The notes: generated by a model from the sequence alone, not told the origin. Positions 2,588-59,174 are shown, numbered from the stretch's first letter. The stretch: 64,000 nt of DNA from an uncultured Methanomicrobiales archaeon (GCA_963697895.1 OY969100.1:2016001-2080000), one strand, 5' to 3'. A program made the numbers and translations.

Positions 2588-3376
2588 ATGGTCAGGATCC
2601 AATGCCCACGATGCCAATGCGAAAAGCTGTATAAATTGGGTAGTGGTAAGAGAAGATGTTCTCAATGCCGGTACGACTTTAAACCTCATAGATTGCCGCT
2701 ATACCTCACTCGCGAACAATGGAAAGAGATCATCACCTGGTTCCTCCTCGAACAGAGCAGCCAGAGCATAGCTGATAGAACTGGGATTGAACGTAAAAGG
2801 GTTCTCAGGGCTCTAAGCGTGATACGAAGCGCTCTGATGAAGGATGTCCCGGAAATCTTTTCTGGAACGGTTGAAGTTGATGAAACATACCTGGGAGGGC
2901 AGTGGAAAAATAAACGTAAATTCATCCGAGATCACGGGAGCAAGCGAGGAAGAGGAACAACGAAACAACCTATCTTCGGAATTCTTTGTAGAAATGGATT
3001 GGTTTGGGCAGAGATTGTCAATAATGTCGAAGCTGAGACCCTCCTGCCGCTAATTTCCAGCAAGGTGAAGAAGGGATCGATTGTTTGTTCAGATACGTGG
3101 AGAGCATATACAGGAATCGCATCGCGAGGATTTGTTCATCGGCTTGTAAATCATGGAGAACGGCAATATAGTGATGGAAGGGGTAGTCACATCAATGGGT
3201 TAGAGGGATTCTGGGGTTATCTTAAACGTAAGTTGGCGGCCAAAGGAGGAATCAGGAGGGAAAAATTATACCTATATTTAGGTGAATATGTCTGGAGATA
3301 TAATCATAGAAAATATACCGATAAAATGAAATTGAAGCGCATACTTGAACTATTAGAGGAAGAGGTTAGTGGCTAG
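2588..3376 (+). CDS. IS1595-family DDE transposase
   Basis: N-terminal Zn ribbon (CPRC...CSQC), VEVDETY, SDTWRAY, HINGLEGFW and YLGEYVWRYN motifs. Confidence 0.93.
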   Translation: MVRIQCPRCQCEKLYKLGSGKRRCSQCRYDFKPHRLPLYLTREQWKEIITWFLLEQSSQSIADRTGIERKRVLRALSVIRSALMKDVPEIFSGTVEVDETYLGGQWKNKRKFIRDHGSKRGRGTTKQPIFGILCRNGLVWAEIVNNVEAETLLPLISSKVKKGSIVCSDTWRAYTGIASRGFVHRLVNHGERQYSDGRGSHINGLEGFWGYLKRKLAAKGGIRREKLYLYLGEYVWRYNHRKYTDKMKLKRILELLEEEVSG

Positions 3377-27854: not shown

Positions 27855-29018
27855 TCACGCCTTCTCCGTAACCTTGAGTTGCACCTCTCCCGGCGTCTCT
27901 TCTTTCACCTTGGAAGTCCGGGGTGTGCAGAGCTTCTCTTTGATCTTATTGTACAGATCCGTCTCTTTACCGGTGATTCGAATGCCTGTCCGGTGAAGGA
28001 GAATGATATCCTCACCTGGACATGCATTCACGCACGCACCACAAAGAATACAGAGATCTTTGTTCACCGCAATGGTCGGCTCTATCTGGCCTTTCATCTC
28101 GGCTGCCGGTTTGGAGCTCGGGAGGTAAATGGCATTTGCAGGACAGATCTCTACGCAGGTGGAACAGCCACCGGGGCATTTTTCCGCATGGAATTCGATA
28201 TCGCCCTCAAAGATCTTTTCAACGGTGATCGCCTCGGTCGGGCAGTTCCGGGAGCACCAGGTGCAGGTACAACAGAGATCCTTGTCGATGTCGACTTTAC
28301 CGGGCATCTTGTCGCTCTCGATCTGCCGTTCGACGGTGATACATTCCTCCGGGCACATCTCGACACAGACCATGCATGCATCGCATTTGCTCTCATCCCA
28401 GACGACTTCTCCCTGAATATTTCCGGATTCGGCTGTGAACTCCTTGTGTTTCACATCGATCGCCGGGCAGAGTGCTCCACAGATCCCGCAGAGCGTGCAT
28501 TTCTCCATATCCACCTTGAATGTGGTTTTGCTGGTCAGTGCCGTCTGCCGGTCCTTGGCGCCTTCAGCAGCGCCTTCGAACTCGGGGACATTTCTGATGA
28601 TCGCATCACGCGGGCAGACCTCGTCACAGATGGTGCATTTCACGCATTTTTCGTCGCTGATTTCTGCAACGATATTGTACTGTGGGAATCCCTCCTTCTC
28701 GATAATGGGAAGGCGTTCCTCGTTATCCACTTTGAGCGTCAGTGCATTGAACGGGCACATGATTACACAGACGCCACAGTAAACGCATTTTGTCTCATCG
28801 ATATCGACCGGAGCCGCATATTCGACCACTCCCCGCTTGGTTGCCCCGACGAGCCCGAGGGCAATCGCATCTTCAGGGCATGCCTCAACGCAGACCCCGC
28901 ACCCCGTGCATACCTCTGCGTTCAGAATCAGGTCTGAAACTTGCTGGAGAAGCCGCTGCTCTCCGGTAACATTCACACCTTCCCGTTTCTTGGAATATTT
29001 AGGATAAATCGTTGTCAT
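27855..29018 (-). CDS. fwdF: Polyferredoxin FwdF
   Basis: Eight [4Fe-4S] ferredoxin motifs; position in the fwd/hdr operon. Confidence 0.92.
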   Translation of the reverse strand: MTTIYPKYSKKREGVNVTGEQRLLQQVSDLILNAEVCTGCGVCVEACPEDAIALGLVGATKRGVVEYAAPVDIDETKCVYCGVCVIMCPFNALTLKVDNEERLPIIEKEGFPQYNIVAEISDEKCVKCTICDEVCPRDAIIRNVPEFEGAAEGAKDRQTALTSKTTFKVDMEKCTLCGICGALCPAIDVKHKEFTAESGNIQGEVVWDESKCDACMVCVEMCPEECITVERQIESDKMPGKVDIDKDLCCTCTWCSRNCPTEAITVEKIFEGDIEFHAEKCPGGCSTCVEICPANAIYLPSSKPAAEMKGQIEPTIAVNKDLCILCGACVNACPGEDIILLHRTGIRITGKETDLYNKIKEKLCTPRTSKVKEETPGEVQLKVTEKA

Positions 29019-29050
29019 GCAGGTACCTCACATTCCTTCACGCTCATTCA

Positions 29051-29314
29051 TCACACCTTTGCCTCTGACATCACGGAACCACGACCTTCCAGCCGGATGA
29101 CATCATGTGGACATGCTTCGACGCATACACCGCACCCCGCGCAGAGCTCTGACTTGAAATCAATCACCATGGATTTTCCATGGCGTACCTTGTAGATCTT
29201 CTCATTTGTGACAGGATCTATGGTATAGAGTTCAAGCGCATCGACAGGACATGCGACCACACAATTACCGCAGCCAGTACAACGTTCCATGTTTACGTGC
29301 ACTGCAAATGCCAT
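29051..29314 (-). CDS. fwdG: 2x[4Fe-4S] ferredoxin FwdG
   Basis: CTGCGNCVVACP and CAGCGVCVEACP. Confidence 0.88.
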   Translation of the reverse strand: MAFAVHVNMERCTGCGNCVVACPVDALELYTIDPVTNEKIYKVRHGKSMVIDFKSELCAGCGVCVEACPHDVIRLEGRGSVMSEAKV

Positions 29315-30071
29315 GTTTTTATCACGCACCAGATTGGATCGATTAAAAAATCGACTAAAGAAGAATGGTTAACTAATGTAGATAAACTCTTCTGATTTCT
29401 CCCTGTTATGACGGCAATTTGGGCGGGTATGATTAATTATTTGTTTTTATTTAGTAAATAAGTTAACTGAAATACCATAAAATACGCCGGAGACCCCTGC
29501 GTTCATCAGGTGCTTTCATTCATTTCAGTCATAGAATAAAAATCTGTTGGTCTTTTCCTTCTTTTTGTAAAGGAGGGTTATATAGTTGTCTTTTGTGAAA
29601 TTATTACGTAATATCTAGGTACTCGGGAAAAAAATCGGGAAATCTTTTAGATTATTTTCGTCATTCCTGAATCCTGTCGTCCCTTCATTTCCCTATTCTA
29701 ATCCCCGTTTTTATCCGCGTATGGTTAATGCTTTGATATTGACATAACTGGATTCTCACTCGGGAGACGGGTAGATTAACGGTACGATTTCTGGTTCGAT
29801 TCCGGATCGGGTTGAATTCCGCGGTCTCATTCCGGAAAAACTGCAATTGGTTTTCGGCAAAACCGGGATAGGGGTATGATCCTGTTATTGATCCACACCC
29901 CGGATATTTCTGCAAAGAATATGGAGAACCGGGATTCGTCAGGGGATTTTCGGGTTTTCACTTTTTTTTATTTTCTCGGGTTTGATCCATCCGGAGTCCG
30001 CTAGGAGAATCGCAATAAGAAAAAGTTATTTTCATCGCTTACCGTACCTCCTGATGAAACGAGGTTGTGAA

Positions 30072-30956
30072 ATGGAACTAAACGGTGTACCGATTGATGA
30101 TACCTACGCTGAAGCATTTCCGATATGGATTTCGAGGGTCATTATCACTGCAGTAACAGAAGAATGGGCCTACAGGGCCGCAACTGAAGCGACAGGATTT
30201 GCGACATCTGCGATCGGCTGTCCGTGCGAGGCAGGAATTGAGAGTATGCTCAGCCCGGATGAGACCCCAGATGGAAGGCCCGGGGTATCAATCCTCATAT
30301 GCACGGCCAAGAAGAAAATGAAGGAACAGCTCATAGAAAGAATTGGAGAGTGTATTTTTACCGCTGCCACAACGGCGGTATTTGACGGTCTTCCGGAAGC
30401 AGAAGAAAAAATACCTGTGAAATTACACTTCTTCGGGGATGGATATGAATACAAGAAGGAACTGGGGGGACGACAAGTCTGGGCGGTGCCTATCATGTCC
30501 GGAGAATACATCGGTGAGGAAGAGTTCGGGATTATGAAGGGTGTTGCAGGGGGCAACTTCTTTGTGATGGGGGAGAATCAAATGGCTGCACTAATGGGTG
30601 CCCAGGCAGCGGTCGATGCAATAGGTTCTGTTTGTGGAGTAATAACGAGTTTCCCCGGAGGCATCGTAGCCAGCGGCTCGAAGGTGGGTTCGAACAAATA
30701 TAAATTCATTCCTGCGAGCACAAATGAAAAATACTGCCCAACCCTTCGTGATAAGGTCCCGGACAGCAAGGTGCCGAAAGGGGTGAATGCGATGTTCGAG
30801 ATAGTTATCGATGGTCTGGATGAGAGCTGCGTATCAGAGGCGATGGCAGAGGGAATCAGGGCGGCAGTCATGGTACCGGGAGTCAAATACATCAGTGCAG
30901 GAAATTTTGGAGGCACTCTCGGGCCATTTAAATTCGAACTGCATAAAATCCTTTAA
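30072..30956 (+). CDS. ftr: Formylmethanofuran:H4MPT formyltransferase
   Basis: MELNGVPIDDTYAEAF, TPDGRPG, GVAGGNF, SAGNFGG. Confidence 0.97.
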   Translation: MELNGVPIDDTYAEAFPIWISRVIITAVTEEWAYRAATEATGFATSAIGCPCEAGIESMLSPDETPDGRPGVSILICTAKKKMKEQLIERIGECIFTAATTAVFDGLPEAEEKIPVKLHFFGDGYEYKKELGGRQVWAVPIMSGEYIGEEEFGIMKGVAGGNFFVMGENQMAALMGAQAAVDAIGSVCGVITSFPGGIVASGSKVGSNKYKFIPASTNEKYCPTLRDKVPDSKVPKGVNAMFEIVIDGLDESCVSEAMAEGIRAAVMVPGVKYISAGNFGGTLGPFKFELHKIL

Positions 30957-31100
30957 TTTTATTTCTGCACCATTTCGATTTCTTTAAATATCTCATTACC
31001 GATTATTCTGTTAACGATAATTTCGGCGACAAAATTTTCCCTTCAGGGGGCATTCGAATTATCAGATCGGAGTATCGGGTAAACGGAAAGGCGGCGATAT

Positions 31101-31994
31101 ATGGCGAATATCCCTGATCCCTATCTCATTCGCTATCCGCAGATTGTGGCAGTTGCTGATGAGGCAGATGCCCGGATTGAGCTCATCGAATTTTTCGAAT
31201 GTACCGGCGGGGCGATGTGGTCAAAGTACCACTACATTCAGAGTCCACTGGTCGAGTCGGTGCGGCATGTCGGGGGGACCATCCGGTATATGCTGAAAAC
31301 GGGAGCGGTAGATCTCGCACTGGAGGGATCCCGATTCCCTGCAGGGATATCGGGGGCCTCTGTCAGCAACGACGAGATCATCATCAGCTATATCGGCATC
31401 GGCGGGGGTGGCGTCGGTGCTGCGGGATGCAGGGCAAATGCGGGGGGTGTGCTCCGGTGCGAAAGCGACCCTTCAGGGGGAGGACGACAGGCTGGTGCAA
31501 CGATCTGGCTTCCAAGGCAGACACGGGTCCTGATCGGGATCGATGACACGGATACCCCTGAACAGGGAGCTACCTGGACGCTGGTGCATAATATCGCGAA
31601 GGCAGTGGAAGATTGTGCGACCCGTTATCTCTCGCACACTATTGTACAGCTCTATCCCGTGCCGTACCGGACCAAGAACTGCGTCAGTCTGGTATGTGAA
31701 TTCGCTTCATCCGACCCCCTGACGCTTATAGAACGGTTTCGACAGCTCCTGGAACGGTATACCCTGTCAGACGAGACGGGTATGGCGGTGTTCAGCGGTT
31801 TCGATCCGTCTTTTCTGTATCCATTTGGAAGGAAAGTGAAATGTGGAGAAATCTCCCGGGATCTCCTGATGGAGATACGGGACCCGAGACTCCGCATCAT
31901 GATGAATGGCCGCGGTATTATCGGGGCGGTCGCGGCAATACCGTTCTATACCCGGTATGAGGAGGCGCTTGCACTGTGCGATGGGTCGAGCTGA
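31101..31994 (+). CDS. mmp11: Methanogenesis marker protein 11 (TiaS-like domain)
   Basis: YIGIGGGGVGA, IGIDDTDTPEQGATW, QLYPVPYRTKNC, GRGIIGAVAA. Confidence 0.8.
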   Translation: MANIPDPYLIRYPQIVAVADEADARIELIEFFECTGGAMWSKYHYIQSPLVESVRHVGGTIRYMLKTGAVDLALEGSRFPAGISGASVSNDEIIISYIGIGGGGVGAAGCRANAGGVLRCESDPSGGGRQAGATIWLPRQTRVLIGIDDTDTPEQGATWTLVHNIAKAVEDCATRYLSHTIVQLYPVPYRTKNCVSLVCEFASSDPLTLIERFRQLLERYTLSDETGMAVFSGFDPSFLYPFGRKVKCGEISRDLLMEIRDPRLRIMMNGRGIIGAVAAIPFYTRYEEALALCDGSS

Positions 31995-32947
31995 AAGCGG
32001 CGCTGCTCTCCCGGGGGACGGCCCGCCTGACCGGTGCGCCGGCAGATGCATATATAGCCCGCTCCGCGGCCGGCCCCGGGGCGGGAGGTTCAGGATCGGT
32101 TTTTTTTTCCCTGGACAACCGGTGCGTACGCCTTGCCGTAGATCCGAACAGCAGTATTCTCATCAACCATCAGGGATGCGGAAAGGCAGTGCTCGTTATG
32201 GACGGGAATACGTGGTATGGCAGGCTGGAACCAATCGGTCTCCATTGTCCCCGACAGGCATACATCACGATAAGCGGCAGCTGCATCTACCATTGCCGGT
32301 ACTGCCCTGTCCCGGCACAGGGAGGAAGGAGGAAATCAGTGAATGAGATAGTGGAGATGGTCAGTGTGGCGAAGGATCGCATCGATGCTATCGCTATTAC
32401 GAGTGGTGTCGCGACAGCGATCCGGGAGGAGGAGGTGTACATGATTTCGGTGATAAAAGCACTCATTCCACTGGGCATCCCGATGGGGGTATCGATATAC
32501 CCTACACCGGAGACTCCCCGCCTTCTCCATGAACTGGGGGTCGTGGAGGTCAAATTCAACCTCGAAACGGCGACCCCGGAACTCTTTACACGCCTCTGCC
32601 CCGGTCTTGACCGGGACCTGATGTGGCTGGTACTGAAAGAATCGGTGGATCTCTTCGGTCGGGGGCATGTCTTCTCCAACGTGATCATTGGACTCGGGGA
32701 ATCCGACGAGGAGATGCGCTCCTGCATACGCGCCCTGACGGCCATCGGGGTGATTCCGGTGTTGCGACCCCTGAACCCCGCGGCCGAACTCTCGGGATTT
32801 TCGCGTCCTTCACCAGAACGGCTGATGCGGCTTGCGGATTTCCACCAAAGAGCGCTTGAAGAGGCAGGACTGGATCCCTGTCAGGCAATTTCGATGTGCA
32901 CCGCCTGTACCGGGTGCGACCTGGTACCCGGGAGGGATATTCCATGA
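31976..32947 (+). CDS. Radical SAM protein, biotin-synthase-related
   Basis: CIYHCRYC, HCPRQAYITIS, VKFNLET, and C-terminal MCTACTGCD (possible auxiliary cluster). Confidence 0.85.
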   Translation: MRWVELKAALLSRGTARLTGAPADAYIARSAAGPGAGGSGSVFFSLDNRCVRLAVDPNSSILINHQGCGKAVLVMDGNTWYGRLEPIGLHCPRQAYITISGSCIYHCRYCPVPAQGGRRKSVNEIVEMVSVAKDRIDAIAITSGVATAIREEEVYMISVIKALIPLGIPMGVSIYPTPETPRLLHELGVVEVKFNLETATPELFTRLCPGLDRDLMWLVLKESVDLFGRGHVFSNVIIGLGESDEEMRSCIRALTAIGVIPVLRPLNPAAELSGFSRPSPERLMRLADFHQRALEEAGLDPCQAISMCTACTGCDLVPGRDIP

Positions 32948-34215
32948 GAGGAGAGGAGGCGATCGCAGAGGCGCTCATGATCTCTGCCGATCGTTGGTAC
33001 AGTGTCCCGGGGTTTCCTATCACGGGTCTCGGTGATCGGGTGGGTGCAGAAATGGTCATCAATGAGAAGACAGCGCTTGAGTATGCGCTCGGAGATTCTC
33101 TTACGGGACGAAGAGCGGCCATCATTGTCAAGAATGTAGGGTTGAATGCATGTGCCGACCCGCTCCTGCAGGCGACGGCACAGGGGCTCATCCGCGGGGT
33201 CGTTATTGTTGCGGGGGACGATCCCGATGCACAGGGATCCCAGACCGCCCAGGACTCGCGATACTACGGAGAACTCGGGGAACTACCGGTGATAGAACCG
33301 GACGTAAGAACCTGTTATACGGGTGTGGAAGCGGCGTTCCAGGCATCGGAGCAGTTTTCACGTGTTGCGATAGTGCGCATCACCCCGGGGATCCTCGGTA
33401 CGGTCGTCGATCGGCATCCCGTCGAACGGCAGGATCGGAATGGCAGGTTGTCCGACCGATCATGGACAATGCAGGGGCGGGTGACAGCCGCTGAAGAACT
33501 GTACCGGACGATGTTCACCTGGTCTTCCCGCTCTCCCCTGAACCGGTGGGAGGGGGATCCGGCAGGGGTAGGTGCGGCAGAAGGAAGGACCCGGATCGTG
33601 ACGGTTCACCCCATGCCGGAGCAGGCTGCCGGAATACCGGTGGTGCATGAATCCGGGCGGAGTTTTGTCCGGGACCACCGGGGGCTTCCGCCCCCGGAAC
33701 CGCAAAAAAGCCCGGAAAAACGGAAGGACAGAGGATATTACCGGACCTTCTGTGCATCGTGTCCGTTCAGACCCCTGCTGGATATCCTCAAAGAAACAGA
33801 TATTCAGGTGATCTGTGATGCGGGGTGTTCGGTGCTCGCGATGACCCCTCCCTATGAAATGGGCGTGGCCAGTTACGGGATGGGTGCGAGTATCGCCGTT
33901 GCCGCGAGAAGCACGGGGGTTGCTCTGATTGGTGACTACGCTATTCTCCATTCGGGAATAAACGCACTTATTGACGTATATGAGAAGAGAATTCCCCTGT
34001 TATGTATCGTGATGAAGAACCGATGTACAGCAATGACCGGAAAGCAGCCGATCCCGGATTCGATCCCTTATCTTGCCTGGGCAAAACCGGTCATCTGTGA
34101 TGCGGATGACGAGGGCCGGCTGCGGATGGTCATCAGACGCCCTGAAATGCCGGGAACCGTGATCGTAGAAGGCGAGTGTCCTGTCGGGGCCACGCACGCA
34201 TTCGTGGAATGTTAA
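32944..34215 (+). CDS. TPP-dependent enzyme, short IorA-like 2-oxoacid oxidoreductase/decarboxylase
   Basis: NEKTALE, KNVGLN, FCASCPF, DAGC, GDYAILHSG...NRCTAMTGKQ; no ferredoxin domain; no iorB nearby. Confidence 0.8.
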   Translation: MRGEEAIAEALMISADRWYSVPGFPITGLGDRVGAEMVINEKTALEYALGDSLTGRRAAIIVKNVGLNACADPLLQATAQGLIRGVVIVAGDDPDAQGSQTAQDSRYYGELGELPVIEPDVRTCYTGVEAAFQASEQFSRVAIVRITPGILGTVVDRHPVERQDRNGRLSDRSWTMQGRVTAAEELYRTMFTWSSRSPLNRWEGDPAGVGAAEGRTRIVTVHPMPEQAAGIPVVHESGRSFVRDHRGLPPPEPQKSPEKRKDRGYYRTFCASCPFRPLLDILKETDIQVICDAGCSVLAMTPPYEMGVASYGMGASIAVAARSTGVALIGDYAILHSGINALIDVYEKRIPLLCIVMKNRCTAMTGKQPIPDSIPYLAWAKPVICDADDEGRLRMVIRRPEMPGTVIVEGECPVGATHAFVEC

Positions 34216-34260
34216 CCGGGGTTCGTGGAATGAACAGGAATTGCATGGGGGAAACCTGAA

Positions 34261-35391
34261 ATGAAGCCGTGGAATATTGAGATCTGTGATGTAACGTTGA
34301 GAGACGGTGAACAGACTCCGGGGGTGTCGTTCACCTGTGAGGAGAAAGTGAAGATCGCCGGAGTGCTGGACGAGATCGGAATCGACGTCATCGAGGTGGG
34401 ATTTCCGGTCGTTTCTCCGTACGAAAAACACTGCGTGACAGCGATCGCTCACCTGGGACTGGATGCCCGCATCTGCTGCCTTGCCCGTGCACGAAAAGTG
34501 GATGTGGAGCAGGCGATCGACTGTGACGTCGGGATGGTGAGCATCTTCATCGCTACATCTGACCTCCATATCCGGCATAAATATAAGAAACCCCGCGAAC
34601 AGGTGGTTGGTGAAGCGCTGGAACTGATCGAATTCGCGCACGATCATGGTGTGGAGGTACGGTTCGCGGCCGAGGATGCATCCCGGACCGACCCTGTCTT
34701 CCTCGGGGAAGTGTACCGGCAGGGGCAGGAATACGGCGCCGACCTGCTTTCTTTCGCCGATACCGTCGGATGCCTTACGCCCCTGGATATGTACCGGATC
34801 ATGCTGGAACTGGTCTCCGCTCTCGATCGACCGCTCTGTGCACACTGCCACAACGATATGGGATGTGCGACGGCAAACACGATCACCGCCGCAGAGGCCG
34901 GGGCGTTCCAGCTGCATACAACGGTAAATGGTATCGGGGAACGTGCCGGCAATGCAGCGCTCGAAGAGGTGCTGGTCGCTGTCAGGATGCGTGGCGGAGT
35001 GGACCGGTATGATCTTTCTTATCTCACGGGTCTTTCACGGCTTGTCGAAGAGTATTCCGGGATACGGATTGCCAAGACCAAACCGGTCGTCGGTGAACAT
35101 GCCTTCTCGCACGAGAGCGGGATCCATATCGCGGCAATCCTCGAAGATCCATCCACCTATGAATATATCCCCCCTGAACTCGTAGGAGGCGAACGCCGGT
35201 TTATCCTTGGAAAACATACGGGAAAGAAGGCGCTCGAATATGTGGTCTCGACCCTCGGATATCAACTTGATGAAAAGCAGATATGCCGGGTTCTTGACGA
35301 AGTAAAGGAGCTTGGGGAGAGTAAATGCGGGATAACTCCCGATACGCTCACCGCCCTTATACGCCATGTACAAAAGGAGCAGATCGGATGA
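34261..35391 (+). CDS. aksA: (Homo)n-citrate synthase
   Basis: DVTLRDGEQTPG, HCHNDMG, GERAGNA, HESGIH; lacks the LeuA regulatory domain. Confidence 0.85.
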   Translation: MKPWNIEICDVTLRDGEQTPGVSFTCEEKVKIAGVLDEIGIDVIEVGFPVVSPYEKHCVTAIAHLGLDARICCLARARKVDVEQAIDCDVGMVSIFIATSDLHIRHKYKKPREQVVGEALELIEFAHDHGVEVRFAAEDASRTDPVFLGEVYRQGQEYGADLLSFADTVGCLTPLDMYRIMLELVSALDRPLCAHCHNDMGCATANTITAAEAGAFQLHTTVNGIGERAGNAALEEVLVAVRMRGGVDRYDLSYLTGLSRLVEEYSGIRIAKTKPVVGEHAFSHESGIHIAAILEDPSTYEYIPPELVGGERRFILGKHTGKKALEYVVSTLGYQLDEKQICRVLDEVKELGESKCGITPDTLTALIRHVQKEQIG

Positions 35392-36599
35392 GCACTCTTT
35401 CGGAACGGATCCTCTGCGGCACGGCAGGCGAGTATGTGGACCGGCATGTCGACCGTGCGTACGTGCATGACGGAACAGGGGTGCTGACCCTGGATGCATG
35501 GCGGAGATTGGGAGAGATGCCCGTGGCTTATCCGGAACAGTGTGCAATCATCTTTGATCACATCGTTCCGGCAAATACTGCCACGACAGCGATACTGCAA
35601 GCGGAGCTCCGTGAATTTGCCTCCTGTACCGGTATCCGGTTCTCTGAAATCGGTGGCGGGATCTGCCACCAGGTCATGAGCGAGGGAGAGGTGCTGCCCG
35701 GTGAGGTGGTGGTGGGCGCCGATTCCCACACCTGCACCCTCGGGGCCTTCGGTGCGTTTGCAACCGGTGTCGGGGCGACGGACATGGCCGCAATCTGGGC
35801 ATCAGGCTCCACCTGGTTCCGGGTTCCCGAGACACTCGCGATCCGGCTGTTGGGGAGGCTCACGGCTCCGGCCGAGCCAAAGGATCTCGCCCTAAAGTAC
35901 GTCGGGCTCCTTGGGATGGATGGCGGGGCATACCGGGCGCTCGAATTCGTGGGGGAAGGCGTGGAGAGCATATCGATGGACGGCAGACTCACCCTGTGTA
36001 ACCTGGCGGTTGAAACCGGTGCGAAGACCGGGCTCTTTTACGCGGACGGCACGACATGCCGGTATCTCGAGAGGTACGGGCAGACAATCCAACCCCAGGT
36101 CCCACAGGACTGCTGTTATGAGCGTGAGTATCCGATCGAGTGCAGCGAGATCGTTCCTCTGATTGCCATCCCGCCGCGGGTGGATACCATTCGTCCCGTA
36201 AGCGATCTAGCAGGTCTCGGAATCGACCAGGTTCTGGTGGGAACGTGCACAAACGGCCGCTTTGAAGATCTTGAGCGATTTGCACGGATCGTCCGGGGCA
36301 GGAAGGTTGCAGTCAGAACAATTGTTGCACCCGCCTCCCGCGAAATTCTGGAGAACGCAATCCGAACAGGGGTACTCGCCGATATCGTTGCAGCAGGCTG
36401 CACGATCATCACCCCGGGCTGCGGACCCTGTCTCGGTGCCCATGCAGGGGTGATCGGGGAGGGGGAGATCTGCCTTTCCACGGCAAACCGGAATTTCCGG
36501 AACCGGATGGGTGTCGGAGGGGATATATACCTCTCGTCGGTCGCCACCGCAGCGGCGAGCGCTTTGACCGGGGAAATCACCGAACCGGAGGTTTGCTGA
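35388..36599 (+). CDS. aksD: Homoaconitase large subunit
   Basis: DSHTCT, GTCTNGR, GCGPCLG, STANRNF. Confidence 0.88.
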   Translation: MSTLSERILCGTAGEYVDRHVDRAYVHDGTGVLTLDAWRRLGEMPVAYPEQCAIIFDHIVPANTATTAILQAELREFASCTGIRFSEIGGGICHQVMSEGEVLPGEVVVGADSHTCTLGAFGAFATGVGATDMAAIWASGSTWFRVPETLAIRLLGRLTAPAEPKDLALKYVGLLGMDGGAYRALEFVGEGVESISMDGRLTLCNLAVETGAKTGLFYADGTTCRYLERYGQTIQPQVPQDCCYEREYPIECSEIVPLIAIPPRVDTIRPVSDLAGLGIDQVLVGTCTNGRFEDLERFARIVRGRKVAVRTIVAPASREILENAIRTGVLADIVAAGCTIITPGCGPCLGAHAGVIGEGEICLSTANRNFRNRMGVGGDIYLSSVATAAASALTGEITEPEVC

Positions 36600-37069
36600 T
36601 GCGGATGGAAGGAACGGCGATCTGCCTCGGGCCGGATATTGATACCGACCAGATCATTGCCGGGCGGTATCTCAGGACGAAGGATCGGCGGATATGGGCT
36701 CTGCACGTCTTTGAAGATCTCGATCCGGGTCTTGCAAACCGCCTGGATGGTGCCGTGATCATCGCCGGGAAAAACTTCGGCTGTGGGTCCTCACGTGAAC
36801 AGGCTGCAATCGCCCTGAAAGAGGCGGGACTCAGGGGCGTTATTGCGCCGAGCTTCGCCCGGATATTTTTCCGGAATGCGATTAACATCGGGCTTCCCCT
36901 TGCCGAATGTTCCTGTTCCTGCGTTGAGGGGGCGTTCTTGAGCGCCGACCTCGGTTCAGGAATTGTCGAACTGAACGGGGAACGTTACCGAATCCGGCCA
37001 CTATCGCCCCGTATGCTCGAAATTCTCACATCCGGAGGGCTGGTGGAATACTGGAGGGAGAGAGGGTGA
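36599..37069 (+). CDS. aksE: Homoaconitase small subunit
   Basis: DIDTDQII, the YLRT homoaconitase specificity loop, NFGCGSSRE. Confidence 0.88.
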   Translation: MRMEGTAICLGPDIDTDQIIAGRYLRTKDRRIWALHVFEDLDPGLANRLDGAVIIAGKNFGCGSSREQAAIALKEAGLRGVIAPSFARIFFRNAINIGLPLAECSCSCVEGAFLSADLGSGIVELNGERYRIRPLSPRMLEILTSGGLVEYWRERG

Positions 37070-37881
37070 TCTTTCCGCGAGAGTGTAAGGAGGTCGGCTA
37101 TGCTTCGACAAAACCCTGTGGAGACCGGACGTATTTCCTCTCGAGGTACCTGATCCATGAGACCCCTGCCGGAGATGAGATCCTCGAGGTAGAGCCTGAC
37201 CCTGCCGGGACGGGATTGATGCGGGACCTGATCAGAACCCGGGTGATTGCCACCGCTGGGGATGTCCACCGGCATCCTGAAAAGGTGAACCTGTATGACC
37301 GTGCGCGTCTCGTACGGATTGCGTCCGAAAGCGGGTACAGGTGCACGATATTTTCCGGACGGGATGAACATACTACGTTTGTGCTTGATTCCGATCTCTC
37401 CTCTTTCCTTACGGTCCACGTCTATGATAATTTTCCCCCGCTGCCGGCCCTCTCGTCCGCCATCTGCGAACAGGAGGCGTGCGGGCTATACGGGGAACTC
37501 GACATTCTCTTCGAACATCATGTGCAGGATGTCGGAAGGAGGGCCGCCGACGTCTTCCCCTGCAGGGCTGCCGGCTTCTCGCGGACGCTCGACGCGGACC
37601 GGATGCAGGGGGGGGAGCGCATGGCAGGGTGCCTGACCGGGGCCCAGCTGTATCGTGAATGTTACGACGGGGAATTCACTCTGGAGGATATCTGCCCGGT
37701 CTCTTCGGTAATGTCAGAGCCCTTCATCACCCGCTGCTGCCGAAGCGAGCGTGAAGGGACAGGGATCCACCATGGGCGGTTCGGTACGATCGTTCACTGG
37801 GGTGCCAGTCCATGTACAATTCTCCGGGCAGTCCACGAGGTGGTTCGGGGGTGGAGGGAGCATGCAGATCGCGGTCGTTGA
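37066..37881 (+). CDS. Cys-rich hypothetical protein inside the aks operon
   Basis: Overlaps aksE (GTGA) and aksF; motifs FPC, GC, ICP, CC and VHWGA. Confidence 0.75.
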   Translation: MIFPRECKEVGYASTKPCGDRTYFLSRYLIHETPAGDEILEVEPDPAGTGLMRDLIRTRVIATAGDVHRHPEKVNLYDRARLVRIASESGYRCTIFSGRDEHTTFVLDSDLSSFLTVHVYDNFPPLPALSSAICEQEACGLYGELDILFEHHVQDVGRRAADVFPCRAAGFSRTLDADRMQGGERMAGCLTGAQLYRECYDGEFTLEDICPVSSVMSEPFITRCCRSEREGTGIHHGRFGTIVHWGASPCTILRAVHEVVRGWREHADRGR

Positions 37882-38833
37882 GGGGGACGGTATCGGCCAC
37901 GAAGTGGTACCGGTCGCACGGGATCTGCTTGCCGTGATGAGACCCGATTTTGAGTTTTTCCAGGTGGAGGTCGGGTTCGGACGGTGGGAGCGCGATGGTC
38001 ACGCGATCACCGATGAAGACATCCAAATGCTGGGATCCGCGGATGCAATCCTGTTCGGGGCGGTGACGACCCCACCCACTCCCGAATACCGGAGTGTGGT
38101 GGTTCAGATCCGGAAGGCACTCGATCTGTTCGCGAACGTCCGTCCTGTATCAGGGGACGATGTGGATCTGGTGATCGTCCGGGAAAATACCGAAGGGCTC
38201 TATACGGGGATCGAGACGATCGAGCCGGACCGGGCGACCACCCTCAGGGTGATAACCCGGAAGGGAACCGAGCGGATTGCCCGGTATGCCTGCGGTCTTG
38301 CCAGGCACCGGATGCACCTGACGATCGGTCACAAAGCGAATGTTCTCAAATCCGATCTGTTCTTCCGGGGTATCTGCCTGGAGGAGGCAAATCTCGCTGA
38401 CGTTCCCTGCGGGGAATGTCTCATCGATGCACTCTGCCTGGACGTTCTCCGCCATCCCCGGGCGTATGACGTGATCGTTACGTCGAACCTTTTTGGGGAT
38501 ATCCTCTCGGATGTCGCGGCATATCTGGTAGGTGGTCTGGGCATGCTCCCGAGCGCCAATATCGGTGATCGGCATGCCCTCTTTGAACCTGTACACGGGA
38601 GCGCCCCTGACATCGCAGGAAGGGACCTTGCAAATCCTGTCGCTGCGATACGGAGTGGAGCGATGCTTCTCCGCCATCTTGGGGATGACGGGTCGGCAAG
38701 AATGGTCGAGGACGCAGTCACAAAAACGCTTGCGCGTGGAGTAAAAACATGCGATATAGGTGGAAACGCAGGCACAAGGAGATTCGGGCGTGAGGTCCGC
38801 GATACATTGGCTTCAATGAAGCGACCCGGATAA
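37862..38833 (+). CDS. aksF: Homoisocitrate/isopropylmalate-family dehydrogenase
   Basis: GDGIGHEV, RENTEGLY, NLFGDILSD, EPVHGSAPDIAG. Confidence 0.85.
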   Translation: MQIAVVEGDGIGHEVVPVARDLLAVMRPDFEFFQVEVGFGRWERDGHAITDEDIQMLGSADAILFGAVTTPPTPEYRSVVVQIRKALDLFANVRPVSGDDVDLVIVRENTEGLYTGIETIEPDRATTLRVITRKGTERIARYACGLARHRMHLTIGHKANVLKSDLFFRGICLEEANLADVPCGECLIDALCLDVLRHPRAYDVIVTSNLFGDILSDVAAYLVGGLGMLPSANIGDRHALFEPVHGSAPDIAGRDLANPVAAIRSGAMLLRHLGDDGSARMVEDAVTKTLARGVKTCDIGGNAGTRRFGREVRDTLASMKRPG

Positions 38834-51709: not shown

Positions 51710-52618
51710 TCAATCTGAACAACGCGAACCGGTATATATGCAGGACTGGACATCTTTTCCGAGCATCCCGATTGCATCCGCCCTGCACCTCTGGCAATGC
51801 CGCATCTGCCTGACGTATTGCGCACATTCGTCCTGCATCTTTCGTTTCATCTCCGGGGTCGGCGGGGTGATATCGGCAAACTTGTATTGAGCGATCAGGG
51901 GGATCACATTGAAGGTGTAAACCCCCATCTCTCCCACCTTTTTCGCGATCTCGGGGATGTGTTCTTCGTTGATCCCAGGGATATAGACCGTGTTGATCTT
52001 CACGATCATCTTCCGATCGACCGCCATCCGGATCCCTTTCATCTGATTATCCAGGAGGATCTTTGCCGCCTCGAGGCCATGATATCGTTTGCCTTTATAG
52101 TCGACAAATTGGTAGATCCGCGAACCGACCTCAGGATCGATCGCATTCAGCGTGACGGTGATGTTATCGACACCATATTTTTGCAGAAGATCTATCTTGT
52201 CCGGCAGAAGGAGGCCATTTGTGCTGATACAGAGGATGAGATGGGGAAATTCTTCATGGAGGAGGCGAAGGGCCTCGAATGTCTCTTCGTTTGCCAGGGG
52301 TTCCCCTGGTCCGGCAATTCCGACGACCTTGATATACTCGTACTTCGCCATGACTTTTCTGACCAGTTCTACCGATTCCTGCGCGTTCAGGACCTTCGTC
52401 GTAACCCCGGGCCTGCTCTCATTCACGCAGTCAAAGTCCCGGATGCAGTAGTTGCACTGGATATTGCACTTTGGCGCGACCGGAATATGACACCTCCCGA
52501 ATGCATGGCATGCCTTCTCTGAGAAACAGGGGTGCTCCGAGATCTTCCTCATCTGTTCCGGATCCCATCTGACCTTCTTTCCTCCCACATCCGCTTCCTT
52601 ATATTCGTCTTTTGCCAT
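51710..52618 (-). CDS. nifB: Stand-alone radical SAM NifB
   Basis: HPC, PVAPKCNIQCNYC, NESRPG, AGPGEPL, HCQRCRADAIG; no NifX domain. Confidence 0.9.
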   Translation of the reverse strand: MAKDEYKEADVGGKKVRWDPEQMRKISEHPCFSEKACHAFGRCHIPVAPKCNIQCNYCIRDFDCVNESRPGVTTKVLNAQESVELVRKVMAKYEYIKVVGIAGPGEPLANEETFEALRLLHEEFPHLILCISTNGLLLPDKIDLLQKYGVDNITVTLNAIDPEVGSRIYQFVDYKGKRYHGLEAAKILLDNQMKGIRMAVDRKMIVKINTVYIPGINEEHIPEIAKKVGEMGVYTFNVIPLIAQYKFADITPPTPEMKRKMQDECAQYVRQMRHCQRCRADAIGMLGKDVQSCIYTGSRCSD

Positions 52619-53130
52619 GGACAACAACCATCTGATCTGGTCTGTTAAGCTATATATAAAATTCAATTCTGCCAGAGGAAATGAATGGATGGCTCCCGCG
52701 GGATATAAATGGGAATTCCGCACCATTTGCCTGCAGGATCCTCTGTACCGTGTTACATATCCCCTTTCGCAATGTCTTTTTCGGATGATTCGTTATCAGT
52801 TCAGACCCCTGTTCCGAAGAATATTATATATCTTGAAGCGGGATCGGAACAGGCCGGCCAGGGGAAAAATTTCGACATATGAGGTTTAATTCCTCCTTCC
52901 CTGACGTTATTCGCGCGCAGGATTGTTTAGAATGTACCCCGGGTCGGATTCGTCATTCTATTCCGGGTTGTGATGGGATAATCAAATTAAAATAACCAAT
53001 AGCGAAGAGGACGCTTCAGCGATCCGGCCGAATCACCCACCGTTGTTCCGGTTTGGTAACGGGGAGAACCCGGGGAGACCGGATTTCGGTGTGAAGAGAG
53101 GGAAGTATATAGGAAAGAATCGCCAATAAA

Positions 53131-58007: not shown

Positions 58008-59132
58008 TCAGGAGAGGTAAGAGAGCACCCGGGCCGGATCGTACCGGAGGCTGATCAACCGGGTTCGTCCCTTCCCCTCCCGGTACTGCAGGTTTACGAG
58101 ACGCATGGCATCGAATTTTTTGATTATTTCGTAAAAACGGGTATATCCGATGCCCATCGACTCCTTGACCGCCTTATAGACCTCTCCCGCATTCATCTCA
58201 CCCCCTTCACCCGAGCGGACGGCAAGGGTCCTCAGGAGTTGTTTCTCCTCGTCTTTCAGGGTCTTAACAGAGTATGCGAGATGGAGGTATTTCGAGACGG
58301 AATATGCACCACAGATATCCTCCCTCTCGATCACCTTCCGTGCATTTTTTTCGGCATTAAGGACAGCACGTTTGAGAAGGTCGATCCCCACACGAAGGTC
58401 ACCACTCTTCAGGGTCTGACTGACGACCAGGTCGAACATGGCGTCACCGAGCACGCCGGGATACAAACCCTGGAGGATCCGTTCCCGCATGATCTCAGCA
58501 ACTTCGTCCTCTGAATATGGGGGAAAGTAGATATCGGTCGGCCGGAACACCGATGATACCCGGGCGTCCACCACGCGGGAGATGTCCACATCGAGATCGC
58601 TGATGATCACGATCACCCCGATCCGCGTGCCCGGATATGCCTCATGTGACCGGAGCAGGGTATACAGCACCTTGTTGAGCTCATTTTCATAGAGGAGATA
58701 GTTCGCATCATCCAGACAGACGAGGAGGACCTGCTCCTCTTTCTGGAGCAGGCGGGCGATCGCATCGAAGACCTGCTTGAACGAGGTTCCCGATGAGGGA
58801 GGAAGATGACCTGACAGTCGGCGATAGATCTGGGAGAAGATGGCAAACTTTGTATTGTCGATCTGACAGTTGATATAAACCGGGACCAGTTTCTTCGTCG
58901 TCTCCGCGATCTCTCCGAAGAGTTTCCGGACGCTTGTCGTCTTCCCGGTCCCGGGAAGACCCCTGCAGATGGTGTTGAGCGGGCGTCCTCCCCGCAATCC
59001 CGGTCGAATCTGGAAGGCGAGCTCCCGCATCTGATCCTCCCGGTGATTGAACTGCTCGGGGACGTAATCGAGTTCGAAAACCTCCGGATCCCGAAACAGG
59101 GTCTCATCCCACATCAGCAGGTCTTTCTTCAT
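58008..59132 (-). CDS. cdc6: ORC1/Cdc6-type replication protein
   Basis: DYVPE, GLPGTGKT, LDD Walker B, GDLRVGIDLL, winged helix with GKGRTR. Confidence 0.92.
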   Translation of the reverse strand: MKKDLLMWDETLFRDPEVFELDYVPEQFNHREDQMRELAFQIRPGLRGGRPLNTICRGLPGTGKTTSVRKLFGEIAETTKKLVPVYINCQIDNTKFAIFSQIYRRLSGHLPPSSGTSFKQVFDAIARLLQKEEQVLLVCLDDANYLLYENELNKVLYTLLRSHEAYPGTRIGVIVIISDLDVDISRVVDARVSSVFRPTDIYFPPYSEDEVAEIMRERILQGLYPGVLGDAMFDLVVSQTLKSGDLRVGIDLLKRAVLNAEKNARKVIEREDICGAYSVSKYLHLAYSVKTLKDEEKQLLRTLAVRSGEGGEMNAGEVYKAVKESMGIGYTRFYEIIKKFDAMRLVNLQYREGKGRTRLISLRYDPARVLSYLS

Positions 59133-59174
59133 ATACACTCCTCAGGATCCACCGTATATAACCTCACCGTTCTT

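Follow-up and report, generated by a model that had tools for sequence, protein, structure and literature searches.

Within the analysed window, a 64,000-nucleotide stretch of DNA from an uncultured Methanomicrobiales archaeon (GCA_963697895.1 OY969100.1:2016001-2080000), eight co-oriented open reading frames fill positions 31101-38833 of the plus strand, and all of them are present over this span. The genes and the spacer preceding them are as follows:

30957..31100, plus strand, AT-rich spacer between ftr and mmp11 with a TATA-like TTTAAATA at 30983-30990 (by eye only)
31101..31994, plus strand, mmp11 (TIGR03280, 318.7 bits vs. cut-off 255.8, model positions 2-290 of 292; Pfam domains TiaS TCKD and FLD)
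31976..32947, plus strand, radical SAM protein (PF04055, 51.1 bits vs. cut-off 29.5)
32944..34215, plus strand, IorA-like TPP protein without ferredoxin domain (TPP_enzyme_C; IOR_alpha, 154.8 bits)
34261..35391, plus strand, aksA-type homocitrate synthase (HMGL-like, i.e. homocitrate/isopropylmalate synthase, plus HCS_D2)
35388..36599, plus strand, aksD-type homoaconitase large subunit, aconitase-type (NF001614, 473.8 bits vs. cut-off 385)
36599..37069, plus strand, aksE-type homoaconitase small subunit, aconitase-type (TIGR02087, 161.8 bits vs. cut-off 108.95)
37066..37881, plus strand, DUF7714, archaeal XcbA homologue and candidate thiol-forming reductase (PF24830, 264.6 bits vs. gathering cut-off 25, profile positions 1-280 of 280)
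37862..38833, plus strand, aksF-type homoisocitrate dehydrogenase (Iso_dh, 307.7 bits)

Six of the seven junctions are overlaps and the remaining one is a 45-bp gap. In 5'->3' direction, the series reads 19-bp overlap, ATGA, 45-bp gap, ATGA, TGATG (1 bp), GTGA and 20-bp overlap, which is exactly what a sequence-only reading of this DNA had described (eight co-oriented genes, six overlapping junctions). The start codons behind these junctions are supported, since for each protein the alignments with relatives begin at residues 1-5. The spacer in front of mmp11 is likely to be the operon promoter, as judged by eye from its AT-richness and the TATA-like element. The gene ftr lies directly upstream of mmp11 and beyond it the minus strand carries a fwdF-like polyferredoxin gene, hdrCBA, fwdBAC and mcrBDCGA; the location beside ftr, hdr and mcr, which the same reading had pointed out, was recovered in this form. 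The whole window is a dense methanogenesis island (mtrE, atwA, mcr, fwd, hdr, ftr, mch). Downstream of aksF we found nfo, an unrelated DNA repair gene, which also follows aksF in 27 of 80 related loci (about one third).

AksA, AksD/E and AksF elongate 2-oxoglutarate to 2-oxosuberate, and this chemistry is established. Both isomerase subunits of the operon passed the broader subfamily models (NF001614 for aksD, TIGR02087 for aksE). On the equivalog models, the scores were below the cut-offs for aksD (HacA_Meth, NF040615, 401 vs. 550 bits), aksE (methanogen model NF040625, 156 vs. 230 bits) and aksF (AksF2_Meth, NF040626, 315 vs. 540 bits). A separate leuC-leuD-leuB cluster is located at 659-662 kb of the genome and shares 34-45% identity with the aks counterparts of the operon. 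It includes the Leu-type paralogue of aksD and the sole other aksF homologue of the genome (34% identical), and two more leuA/cimA-like paralogues of aksA are found elsewhere. The aksE product carries YLRT at the site where the other small subunit of the genome has FLIL. The aks genes of the operon can, consequently, be told apart from the leucine-pathway paralogues that this genome also has, and we infer their assignment from family membership, elimination of paralogues and context.

The mmp11 protein consists of an N-terminal domain of its own (roughly 140 residues, including a Gly-rich loop that is invariant), which is followed by a TiaS-type kinase (TCKD) domain. When its AF2 model (pLDDT 91.2) was compared by Foldseek with TiaS (3amt_A), the E-value was 1.7e-8 with an rmsd of 3.2 over 163 columns. 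Among 17 sequences, D148, T150, D151 and G156-A157-T158-W159 are invariant and D149 is nearly so, and T158 corresponds in the alignment to the first Thr of 'CTT' in the TiaS-like chain 3u02. Thus, the C-terminal half of mmp11 has kept the kinase-domain fold, the DDTD motif and the aligned Thr of TiaS, the tRNA(Ile2) agmatidine synthetase, where this Thr is the phospho-acceptor. However, the TiaS chain comprises 417 residues, of which the alignment covers 163 columns only, and the TiaS model (NF040849) gave no full-length match to mmp11 (17.9 bits vs. cut-off 600). Judging from length and coverage, the tRNA-binding domains of TiaS appear to be lacking in mmp11 and its substrate is presumably a small molecule. 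In TiaS, ATP activates a carbonyl oxygen so that an amine can displace it. The TIGR03280 family was originally defined as confined to organisms with methyl-coenzyme M reductase. Such a restriction did not hold here, since five genomes (G047, G057, G065, G073, G059) carry mmp11 over its cut-off and gave no mcrA match at E 0.001; the radical SAM partner is present in genomes of this kind as well.

For the radical SAM protein, the scores were far below the cut-offs of LipS2 (53.7 vs. 270 bits), lipoyl synthase (19.7 vs. 203 bits) and TIGR04043 (58 bits), and the best PDB sequence match was lipoyl synthase 5exi (E 0.004). C103/C107/C110 (CX3CX2C) and C308/C311/C314 are invariant in 23 homologues, which cover both deep clades. 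The radical SAM core most closely resembles LipA, and a second conserved Cys triad is also present; this C-terminal CxxCxxC triad presumably differs in position and spacing from those of LipA and BioB. The operon protein is a rapidly evolving paralogue that is peculiar to this order. Three other families (f8, f16, f17) have a radical SAM neighbour of mmp11 that scores 220-331 bits on TIGR04043 (MSMEG_0568-type), so that this gene pair is older and more widespread than its association with aks. The radical SAM clade is also present in f15 (7 of 23 genomes) and f12 (2 of 5), two families without the other three candidate genes.

The TPP protein shares with IorA and the 2-oxoacid:ferredoxin oxidoreductases a core of Pyr and PP domains, the TPP motif and four invariant Cys. 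It can be seen from 17 sequences that C270, C273, C295, C412 and the G330-D331...N359 motif are invariant. On IOR_alpha (TIGR03336, cut-off 650.9), not only the operon protein (154.8 bits) but also its 500-residue relatives (about 320 bits) were below the cut-off. These relatives covered model positions 6-534 or 8-539 of 595, and the part beyond about 534-539 was unmatched. The proteins of this order have also lost about 95 central residues. No IorB gene adjoining the TPP gene was seen in the window or in the annotated loci. The invariant Cys would bind a cluster, probably one [4Fe-4S], and their number and spacing correspond to what we take to be the proximal [4Fe-4S] cluster pattern of 2-oxoacid:ferredoxin oxidoreductases. 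Because of this match, the chemistry may be oxidative and not aldehyde-yielding. We consider the IorA-like TPP protein a candidate 2-oxosuberate decarboxylase.

The cysteine-rich open reading frame noted in the sequence-only reading turned out to be DUF7714 (PF24830). Profile comparison (hhalign) with four XcbA proteins gave a probability of 99.4% (E 1.8e-21, 240 columns), and the Cys pattern PC..GC..CP..CC..WG (five Cys positions) is common to both alignments. By tblastn, xcbA matches were obtained inside CoM clusters on four plasmids. By these sequence comparisons DUF7714 is a full-length homologue of bacterial XcbA, which is a new finding. On the NCBIfam XcbA model (NF052538), its score was below the cut-off (35.4 bits, E 7.1e-9, vs. 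150), and for this reason DUF7714 is best described as a sister family. According to PMC9457059, XcbA is a [2Fe-2S] protein that converts sulfoethanethioaldehyde to coenzyme M (CoM) by reduction. DUF7714 is homologous to the enzyme of Xanthobacter autotrophicus Py2 over about 240 columns, with the same five Cys and the C-terminal WG motif, and both genes are parts of operons making a thiol cofactor of the CoM/CoB pair. The neighbours are different (xcbB-E for XcbA, aksE and aksF for DUF7714), and the bacterial xcbA copies adjoin genes for phosphosulfolactate synthase, lyases and a PLP enzyme. The substrates should also differ, since a C7 aldehyde or thioaldehyde is predicted for DUF7714 instead of sulfoethanethioaldehyde. 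Taking homology and context together, DUF7714 is a candidate thiol-forming reductase.

To define how far this arrangement extends, we used a 201-genome phylum sample, 80 related loci from named genome records and eight fetched loci from genomes of the same taxonomic order. The full set of eight genes in the order seen here is present in 59 of the 80 related loci, with contig ends truncating most of the remaining 21. It also recurs in seven of the eight fetched loci, G189 being the exception. This arrangement is far beyond chance. Linkage of the four candidate genes to aks extends across at least ten family-level groups, and the expectation that it would reach beyond this genome was borne out. 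DUF7714 was present in 93 genomes of the 201-genome sample, 89 of which also have an AksF-type match (at least 296 bits), and no genome of this sample had such a match without DUF7714. The distance between the two genes is 8-104 bp in 84 of the 89 genomes, 0.7-2.2 kb in four and 257 kb in one. Of the 91 genomes with both the TPP gene and mmp11, 62 have the two within 2.5 kb of each other. A distance of at most 8 kb between the TPP gene and DUF7714 was seen in 60 of 93 genomes, and each family with the TPP gene shows it linked to mmp11, the aks-DUF7714 cluster or both.

Profiling against mcr and aks confirmed the expected co-occurrence in part. The mcrA-bearing families f1-f7, f10, f14 and f24 share DUF7714, the TPP-like gene and the AksF type. 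However, 32 of the 119 mcrA-bearing genomes gave neither DUF7714 nor the TPP-like gene (f8, 3; f12, 5; f15, 19; f16, 3; f20, 2), and the 29 of these that belong to f12, f15, f16 and f20 gave no AksF-type match at E 1e-70. The M. jannaschii control did not have a DUF7714 match either. Thus, DUF7714 and the TPP protein cannot be universal late enzymes. In f12 and in each of the 23 f15 genomes, the mmp11 scores lie under the family cut-off. In G189, the isomerase and dehydrogenase are of the Leu type only and a TPP-like gene is lacking, so that aks and the TPP gene were lost together. In G189 and the named loci L114 and L116, aks and the TPP gene are absent but DUF7714 is retained together with mmp11 and the radical SAM gene, so that DUF7714 has a use apart from the proposed upstream enzymes.

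Because their linkage to aks recurs in many related methanogens, mmp11, the radical SAM protein, the TPP protein and DUF7714 are concrete candidates for late steps of coenzyme B (CoB) synthesis. Our main reading, to which we assign a probability of about 0.5, is that the operon serves CoB biosynthesis and joins chain elongation to later steps. AksA, AksD/E and AksF would elongate 2-oxoglutarate to 2-oxosuberate, which the IorA-like TPP protein, working without ferredoxin domain or IorB, would decarboxylate to 7-oxoheptanoate. DUF7714 would then reduce the sulfide adduct or thioaldehyde of 7-oxoheptanoate to 7-mercaptoheptanoate, as its XcbA homology and its near-constant adjacency to aksF suggest. 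In the weakest step, mmp11 may activate the carboxylate for the amide bond with threonine and/or phosphorylate threonine, and the radical SAM protein, its ancient neighbour, would act together with it. We see a somewhat better than even chance that the TPP protein and DUF7714 function as enzymes of CoB synthesis; extending this to all four genes is tentative, and we would rather bet against it. The original proposal that the operon may encode late CoB steps is supported in part: it gains from the recurrent linkage and the XcbA homologue, but it is weakened by the lack of universality and by the other neighbours of mmp11. Similarly, the suggestion that the co-operonic proteins offer matching chemistries is now firmer for the cysteine-rich protein and reasonable for the TPP protein, but among the four proposed late steps there is none to which the radical SAM protein would obviously belong.

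The route of ComDE and ComF follows a comparable logic, in which a TPP enzyme decarboxylates a 2-oxoacid and the resulting aldehyde is then turned into a thiol. ComDE (sulfopyruvate decarboxylase) and ComF are functional analogues only of the TPP protein and DUF7714, and the protein families are unrelated. In PMC3087415, ComF is stated to be unidentified.

The neighbours of mmp11 elsewhere leave room for a division of labour, in which only the TPP protein and DUF7714 act in CoB synthesis. Here, mmp11 and the radical SAM protein would serve another MCR-linked process (e.g. MCR modification or maturation) and would merely be co-expressed with aks in this order. Consistent with this, mmp11 is located right upstream of mcrBDGA in L033 and L041 and beside ycaO-tfuA, presumably thioglycine-forming genes, in L025, L027 and L036, and its adjacency to a radical SAM gene in f8, f16 and f17 predates the link to aks. 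Nevertheless, we consider this division unlikely. The 62 genomes with mmp11 close to the aks-linked TPP gene include 21 of 21 in f7 and 6 of 6 in f24, and the fetched mmp11 loci of these two families show neither mcr nor aksA/D/E/F nor DUF7714. Moreover, the five mmp11-bearing genomes without mcrA have no such target to be modified, and in every one of the 23 f15 genomes mmp11 scored under its cut-off, although 19 of these have mcrA.

DUF7714 might instead form the CoM thiol from sulfoacetaldehyde in ComA-less methanogens, alone or besides the CoB thiol. The proven product of XcbA is CoM (PMC9457059). ComA was found in no DUF7714-bearing family and is present in f12 (5 of 5), f15 (6 of 23), f20 (1 of 2) and M. 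jannaschii. Since the mcrA-bearing families show a complementary distribution of DUF7714 and ComA, the marker of the CoM route of the M. jannaschii type, a CoM role also fits, and so does the retention of DUF7714 in G189 after loss of aks and the TPP gene. We rate this role as improbable, since DUF7714 directly adjoins aksF or aksE in 84 of 89 genomes and since no CoM genes lie beside it in any annotated aks-DUF7714 locus. In addition, methanogenesis marker 16, which we take to be the proposed ComF for the CoM thiol, is present elsewhere in this genome (516 bits), and f16 and the three mcrA-bearing f8 genomes have neither ComA nor DUF7714. In a methanogenesis island as dense as this one, where even nfo recurs behind aksF, the four candidate genes could finally be unrelated passengers whose place next to aks has no functional meaning. 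This is very improbable, since the linkage has persisted through rearrangements between families that differ in gene order and strand, adjoining genes overlap at their stop and start codons, phyletic patterns coincide, and aks and the TPP gene disappeared together in G189.

The CoB reading can be carried further, to an operon that constitutes the complete missing half of CoB synthesis for Methanomicrobiales and Methanosarcinales-type methanogens. In this rather unlikely full form, an oxidoreductase-derived TPP/[4Fe-4S] decarboxylase would make 7-oxoheptanoate, the archaeal XcbA homologue would make the thiol, and mmp11, which would need the radical SAM protein as obligatory partner, would be the 7-mercaptoheptanoate:threonine ligase and/or kinase that has long been sought. 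If this were true, one reductase fold would have been recruited independently for the thiols of CoM (bacteria) and CoB (archaea), and mmp11 would re-use the carbonyl-phosphorylation chemistry of a tRNA-modifying enzyme. Matches to both DUF7714 and mmp11 were also obtained in M. acetivorans.

Eight open reading frames on the + strand span positions 31101-38833 in the window and carry the following annotations.

Predicted genes of the operon, in order
mmp11, + strand: TIGR03280, 318.7 bits at a cut-off of 255.8; Pfam TiaS TCKD and FLD domains
radical SAM protein, + strand: PF04055
TPP protein, + strand: C-terminal TPP-binding domain; best NCBIfam model indolepyruvate:ferredoxin oxidoreductase alpha, 154.8 bits at a cut-off of 650.9
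aksA, + strand: homocitrate/isopropylmalate synthase family
aksD and aksE, + strand: aconitase-type isomerase, large and small subunits
DUF7714, + strand: PF24830, 264.6 bits
aksF, + strand: isocitrate/isopropylmalate-type dehydrogenase

The junctions are, in order, a 19-bp overlap, ATGA, a 45-bp gap, ATGA, TGATG, GTGA and a 20-bp overlap. The operon is flanked by ftr directly upstream and by nfo downstream, and beyond ftr the opposite strand carries a polyferredoxin gene, hdrCBA, fwdBAC and mcrBDCGA. When the reading frames and junctions were read from the sequence and the flanks were annotated, the eight co-oriented genes with overlapping junctions described in the sequence-only reading were borne out exactly, as was the ftr/hdr/mcr neighbourhood. 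By eye, the AT-rich spacer upstream of mmp11 contains TTTAAATA at 30983-30990, no such box is present in the 45-bp gap and no T-run was seen downstream of aksF. The mmp11 protein is 63-73% identical in Methanoregula, Methanolinea, Methanoculleus and other Methanomicrobiales, which places the window in this order.

None of the four aks genes passed the NCBIfam equivalog cut-offs (HacA_Meth, 401 vs. 550; HacB2_Meth, 156 vs. 230; AksF2_Meth, 315 vs. 540), and both isomerase subunits passed the broader NCBIfam subfamily models. The genome containing the window (G000; 2.09 Mb, one contig) carries a second set, leuC-leuD-leuB, clustered at 659-662 kb and 34-45% identical to the operon proteins, and there are two more leuA-like genes elsewhere. 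The operon small subunit carries YLRT, reportedly the homoaconitase signature in work on M. jannaschii, and the other copy has FLIL at the same place. Since a separate leuC-leuD-leuB set exists, the operon set is the Aks set by elimination and context.

Coenzyme B (CoB) serves methyl-coenzyme M reductase (MCR) as one of its two substrates, and thus every methane molecule made biologically or oxidised anaerobically passes through it. To our knowledge, the only assigned CoB genes are those of AksADEF chain elongation; since the description of the pathway in about 1989-1997, no genes are known to us for the late activities, comprising a decarboxylase, a thiol-forming enzyme, a threonine ligase and a kinase. 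The open steps, as reportedly formulated by White and co-workers, are decarboxylation of 2-oxosuberate to 7-oxoheptanoate (step 1), conversion of this aldehyde to 7-mercaptoheptanoate (step 2), ATP-dependent amide formation with threonine (step 3) and phosphorylation (step 4). Section 14.5 of PMC3087415 lists the CoB intermediates to the semialdehyde and names Aks homologues alone, and a passage of the same source gives ComF of the parallel coenzyme M (CoM) route as unidentified. Our literature search, with most subscription journals and supplements outside its coverage, found no paper naming 'methanogenesis marker protein 11', no mention of DUF7714 or PF24830 and no assignment of genes to the late CoB steps; an earlier mention elsewhere is possible.

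To describe the conservation of the linkage, we surveyed the 80 closest named loci around mmp11, nearly all of them from Methanomicrobiales. The full eight-gene set in the order of the window was present in 59, and contig ends cut most of the other 21. In one locus (L115) DUF7714 is relocated to the other side, and another (L073) gave no match for the radical SAM gene. In the Methanocorpusculum-type loci L114 and L116 the set is reduced to mmp11, radical SAM, DUF7714 and nfo. We also searched one fixed phylum sample of 201 genomes that includes G000; Methanococci, Methanobacteria and Methanopyri were covered by an M. jannaschii control of the family searches only.

Genomes with a match among the 201 genomes of the phylum sample
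DUF7714: 93
mmp11 above its own cut-off: 102
TPP protein (E 1e-20): 96, two of them at threshold (G189, a 602-aa frame of true IorA length; G185, a 222-aa fragment)
mcrA (E 1e-50): 119
radical SAM protein (E 1e-15): 101
AksF-type (E 1e-70): 119, of which 89 score at least 296 bits and the rest (families f8, f21, f22, f25) 240-276 bits

The same range, comprising the family-level groups f1-f7, f10, f14 and f24, was obtained for DUF7714, for the TPP-like gene and for the high-scoring AksF type; outside it we found only two weak TPP matches in f19. In the 89 genomes with both genes, DUF7714 and the AksF type are 8-104 bp apart in 84, 0.7-2.2 kb in four and 257 kb in one. No genome of the sample has this AksF type without DUF7714, and the reverse was observed in G189 (99% complete), G125 (75%), G074 (83%) and G161 (64%). 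The TPP gene and mmp11 are separated by no more than 2.5 kb in 62 of 91 genomes (all f1-f7 except G189, all f24, 8/15 in f14, 0/21 in f10), and the TPP gene and DUF7714 by no more than 8 kb in 60 of 93 (f1-f6 except G189, 20/23 in f10, 13/15 in f14, none in f7 and f24). Gene maps for the families were drawn from 40 fetched loci.

Gene maps by family (parentheses as in the maps; rSAM, radical SAM gene)
f1-f6: ftr, (mmp11 paralogue), mmp11, rSAM, TPP, aksA, aksD, aksE, DUF7714, aksF, nfo
f14: mmp11, (rSAM), TPP, aksA on the opposite strand, aksD, aksE, aksF, DUF7714
f10: (rSAM), TPP, aksA on the opposite strand, aksDEF, DUF7714; mmp11 elsewhere
f7 and f24: mmp11-TPP pair and aksE-DUF7714-aksF trio

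In Methanohalophilus mahii, the relevant passage of PMC3017947 gives aksE as Mmah_0127 and aksF as Mmah_0129 with one unnamed gene between them, which agrees with the trio of f7. The clusters of f14, f10 and f7 contain no further conserved genes, and their neighbours are unrelated or variable (Usp, DsbD-like, Rce1-like, MobA-like, AglB, epimerase). Taken together, the distances and gene maps across families define a network of four links (aks with DUF7714, aks/DUF7714 with the TPP gene, TPP gene with mmp11, mmp11 with the radical SAM gene), which is robust to changes of order and strand. Thus, linkage to aks beyond G000, a check proposed in the sequence-only reading, was found both in the 59 of 80 named loci and in the 84 of 89 genomes with closely spaced DUF7714 and AksF type.

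For DUF7714, the NCBIfam model of XcbA, the bacterial [2Fe-2S] thioaldehyde reductase of CoM synthesis, gave a sub-threshold match (E 7.1e-9, 35.4 bits, cut-off 150). In tblastn, DUF7714 matched plasmids of Xanthobacter autotrophicus Py2, Methylocystis iwaonis, Mycolicibacterium chubuense NBB4 and Nocardioides JS614, in all four cases at an unnamed gene adjoining phosphosulfolactate synthase. Two lyase-family genes and a PLP enzyme come next in the Methylocystis, Mycolicibacterium and Nocardioides records, and the Xanthobacter stretch has the two lyase genes and no annotated PLP enzyme; these four loci are bacterial CoM clusters. A profile-profile comparison of 15 DUF7714 with four XcbA sequences yielded a probability of 99.4% (E 1.8e-21, 240 columns), and both families share the invariant motifs PC, GC, CP, CC and WG. 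This link is implicit in the existence of the NCBIfam XcbA model, and we know of no discussion of it. The [2Fe-2S] cluster of XcbA and its reduction of sulfoethanethioaldehyde to CoM have been demonstrated, and the authors state that no homologue of known function was found (PMC9457059). The AF2 model of DUF7714 reached a pLDDT of 91. A PDB sequence search gave nothing usable (best E 0.39), Foldseek returned no match at E 0.001, VIA-align against 48,161 chains found at best generic alpha/beta domains (Z 7.9, residues 111-271 only) and the ESM Atlas search yielded unrelated clusters only (scores up to 0.85). For this model, the absence of a convincing fold relative should be taken to indicate neither a new fold nor a function. 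We suggest that DUF7714 would catalyse step 2, because the final half of this chemistry is precisely what XcbA performs and because DUF7714 is nearly inseparable from aksF.

Relatives of the TPP protein with about 500 residues match positions 6-534 or 8-539 of the 595 of the IOR_alpha model, with POR_N and TPP_enzyme_C present; some 95 central residues are missing from the version of this order. Invariant in 17 sequences are N40-E41-K42, G91-D92-D93, C270, C273, C295, C412 and G330-D331...N359. In number and spacing, the four cysteines presumably correspond to those of the proximal [4Fe-4S] cluster of 2-oxoacid:ferredoxin oxidoreductases and may ligate a cluster of this type. Neither a ferredoxin domain nor IorB was seen, and a PDB sequence search gave no match at E 0.01. 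The protein would be suited for step 1, since it is a 2-oxoacid enzyme, is tied to aksA or to the aks cluster, and is lost together with aks in G189.

The mmp11 model (pLDDT 91.2) resembles the N-terminal kinase region of TiaS, the tRNA(Ile2) agmatidine synthetase (3amt_A, E 1.7e-8, rmsd 3.2 over 163 columns, 23% identity). In 17 aligned sequences D148, T150, D151 and G156-A157-T158-W159 are invariant and D149 nearly so, and within the N-terminal 140 residues a Gly-rich loop and other motifs are also invariant. In an alignment with the TiaS-like chain 3u02, T158 falls on the first of the two Thr residues of 'CTT', presumably the Thr that TiaS autophosphorylates. TiaS phosphorylates the C2 carbonyl of cytidine, which enables its displacement by the agmatine amine. 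Since mmp11 is the sole ATP-using candidate and TiaS chemistry is carbonyl activation for amine attack, mmp11 might be involved in step 3, in step 4 or in both, which is the weakest of our assignments. Many genomes of this order have, immediately before mmp11, a second, diverged mmp11-like gene (about 180-210 bits with TIGR03280, below cut-off; L002 5337-6353, L003 13343-14326, L007-L009); in G000 this site is empty and a 27% identical copy is found at G000:C1:1592459-1593310.

Two cysteine triads of the radical SAM protein are invariant across 23 homologues, namely CX3CX2C (C103, C107, C110) and the C-terminal CX2CX2C (C308, C311, C314), of which the second would be suitable for binding a substrate or donating sulfur. 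Among solved structures, lipoyl synthase is nearest in sequence (E 0.004). In a tree of 34 homologues, midpoint-rooted for display only, two deep clades separate. Clade I is of the MSMEG_0568 type (TIGR04043, 220-331 bits) and adjoins mmp11 in all loci examined of f8, f16 and f17; clade II contains the copies of f1-f7, f10, f12, f14, f15 and f24, which group by lineage. Within this order, the operon-borne gene forms a long branch and is paralogous to an unlinked, slow-evolving type that other methanogen families share. In G000 the unlinked copy (G000:C1:1774633-1775604; L141 7631-8614) is broken by an internal stop into two fragments and only the operon paralogue is intact. We also considered unlinked copies of other families as possible neighbours of other CoB genes, but operon genes were found in none of 16 loci. 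On the Methylocystis iwaonis plasmid (L043 1-4216) a full MSMEG_0568-type cluster (radical SAM, N-acetyltransferase, AIR-synthase-like, nitrilase, Pnap_2097) lies directly beside the CoM (xcb) cluster; its radical SAM gene belongs to the family of mmp11's neighbour in f8, f16 and f17, which may be coincidence.

These data make DUF7714 and the TPP protein strong, and mmp11 moderate, candidates for CoB enzymes of this methanogen group. The proposal that the four non-aks genes encode late CoB steps is thereby partly supported; for the radical SAM protein we predict no reaction. On this reading, CoB synthesis would have recruited for its late steps a reductase of the XcbA type, a TPP enzyme derived from OFORs and a kinase resembling TiaS.

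DUF7714 and the TPP-like gene are not universal among mcrA-bearing genomes. In the phylogenetic profiling suggested as a check, both coincide with the high-scoring AksF type in f1-f7, f10, f14 and f24, but neither gene was found in 32 of the 119 mcrA-bearing genomes (three in f8, five in f12, 19 with divergent mcrA in f15, three in f16, two in f20). The 29 of f12, f15, f16 and f20 also lack an AksF-type match at E 1e-70, and these genomes may use diverged or different enzymes throughout. In the M. jannaschii control mmp11, mcrA, ComA and marker 16 were matched and DUF7714 was not. G189, L114 and L116 retain mmp11, the radical SAM gene and DUF7714, whereas aks and the TPP gene were not found with the queries used, which hints at salvage of a CoB precursor or at another use of DUF7714; nfo is also retained in the Methanocorpusculum-type loci L114, L116 and L005 (G189).

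A role of DUF7714 in CoM synthesis of ComA-less methanogens fits its distribution as well as the CoB role does: no ComA match came from the families with DUF7714, compared with 5/5 genomes of f12, 6/23 of f15, 1/2 of f20 and 2/7 of f21. Against this speak the position of DUF7714 beside aksF and the presence in G000 of marker 16 (516 bits), presumably the proposed ComF; the marker 16 tally is unreliable for absence, since scoring in most genomes listed was limited to 8 of 12-55 first-look candidates. A function of mmp11 in MCR maturation is a serious rival to its CoB assignment because of its other neighbours. In two f16 loci mcrBDGA follows mmp11 immediately, and in three others, two from f10 and one from f8, ycaO-tfuA is its neighbour. 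However, its pairing with the TPP gene is constant in f7 and f24, and five genomes carry mmp11 above cut-off without mcrA. A radical SAM gene adjoins mmp11 in all four fetched loci of these mcrA-less genomes. In f12, and in each of the 23 f15 genomes, mmp11 scores below cut-off.

The locus and its conservation offer four specific candidates for the late CoB steps, one of which, DUF7714, has a direct biochemical precedent in XcbA, and a question that is decades old becomes directly testable with four named genes. If true, the textbook pathway would be completed, a 'methanogenesis marker' (mmp11) and a DUF (DUF7714) would gain functions and new inhibitor targets for methane mitigation would be available. 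As a quarter of the sampled mcrA-bearing genomes lack these genes, methanogen lineages would then reach the same cofactor via different late enzymes.

Several minor observations concern other sites. A NifB-like radical SAM gene (TIGR01290, 356 bits, cut-off 343.65) is located at window 51710-52726, with no nitrogenase genes seen among the ORFs scanned in the window. An f16 genome carries tandem mcrA-type matches (G011:C1:831970-835505; 910.8 and 872.2 bits, 264 bp apart). Inside the methanogenesis gene island, mtrE and a larC-like gene flank an IS1595-family transposase (window 2588-3376). Within window 28000-31000, the cumulative GC skew has its minimum at about 28-30 kb, where the genes switch from - to + (fwdF-like vs. 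ftr), and an Orc1/Cdc6 gene is found at window 58008-59138.
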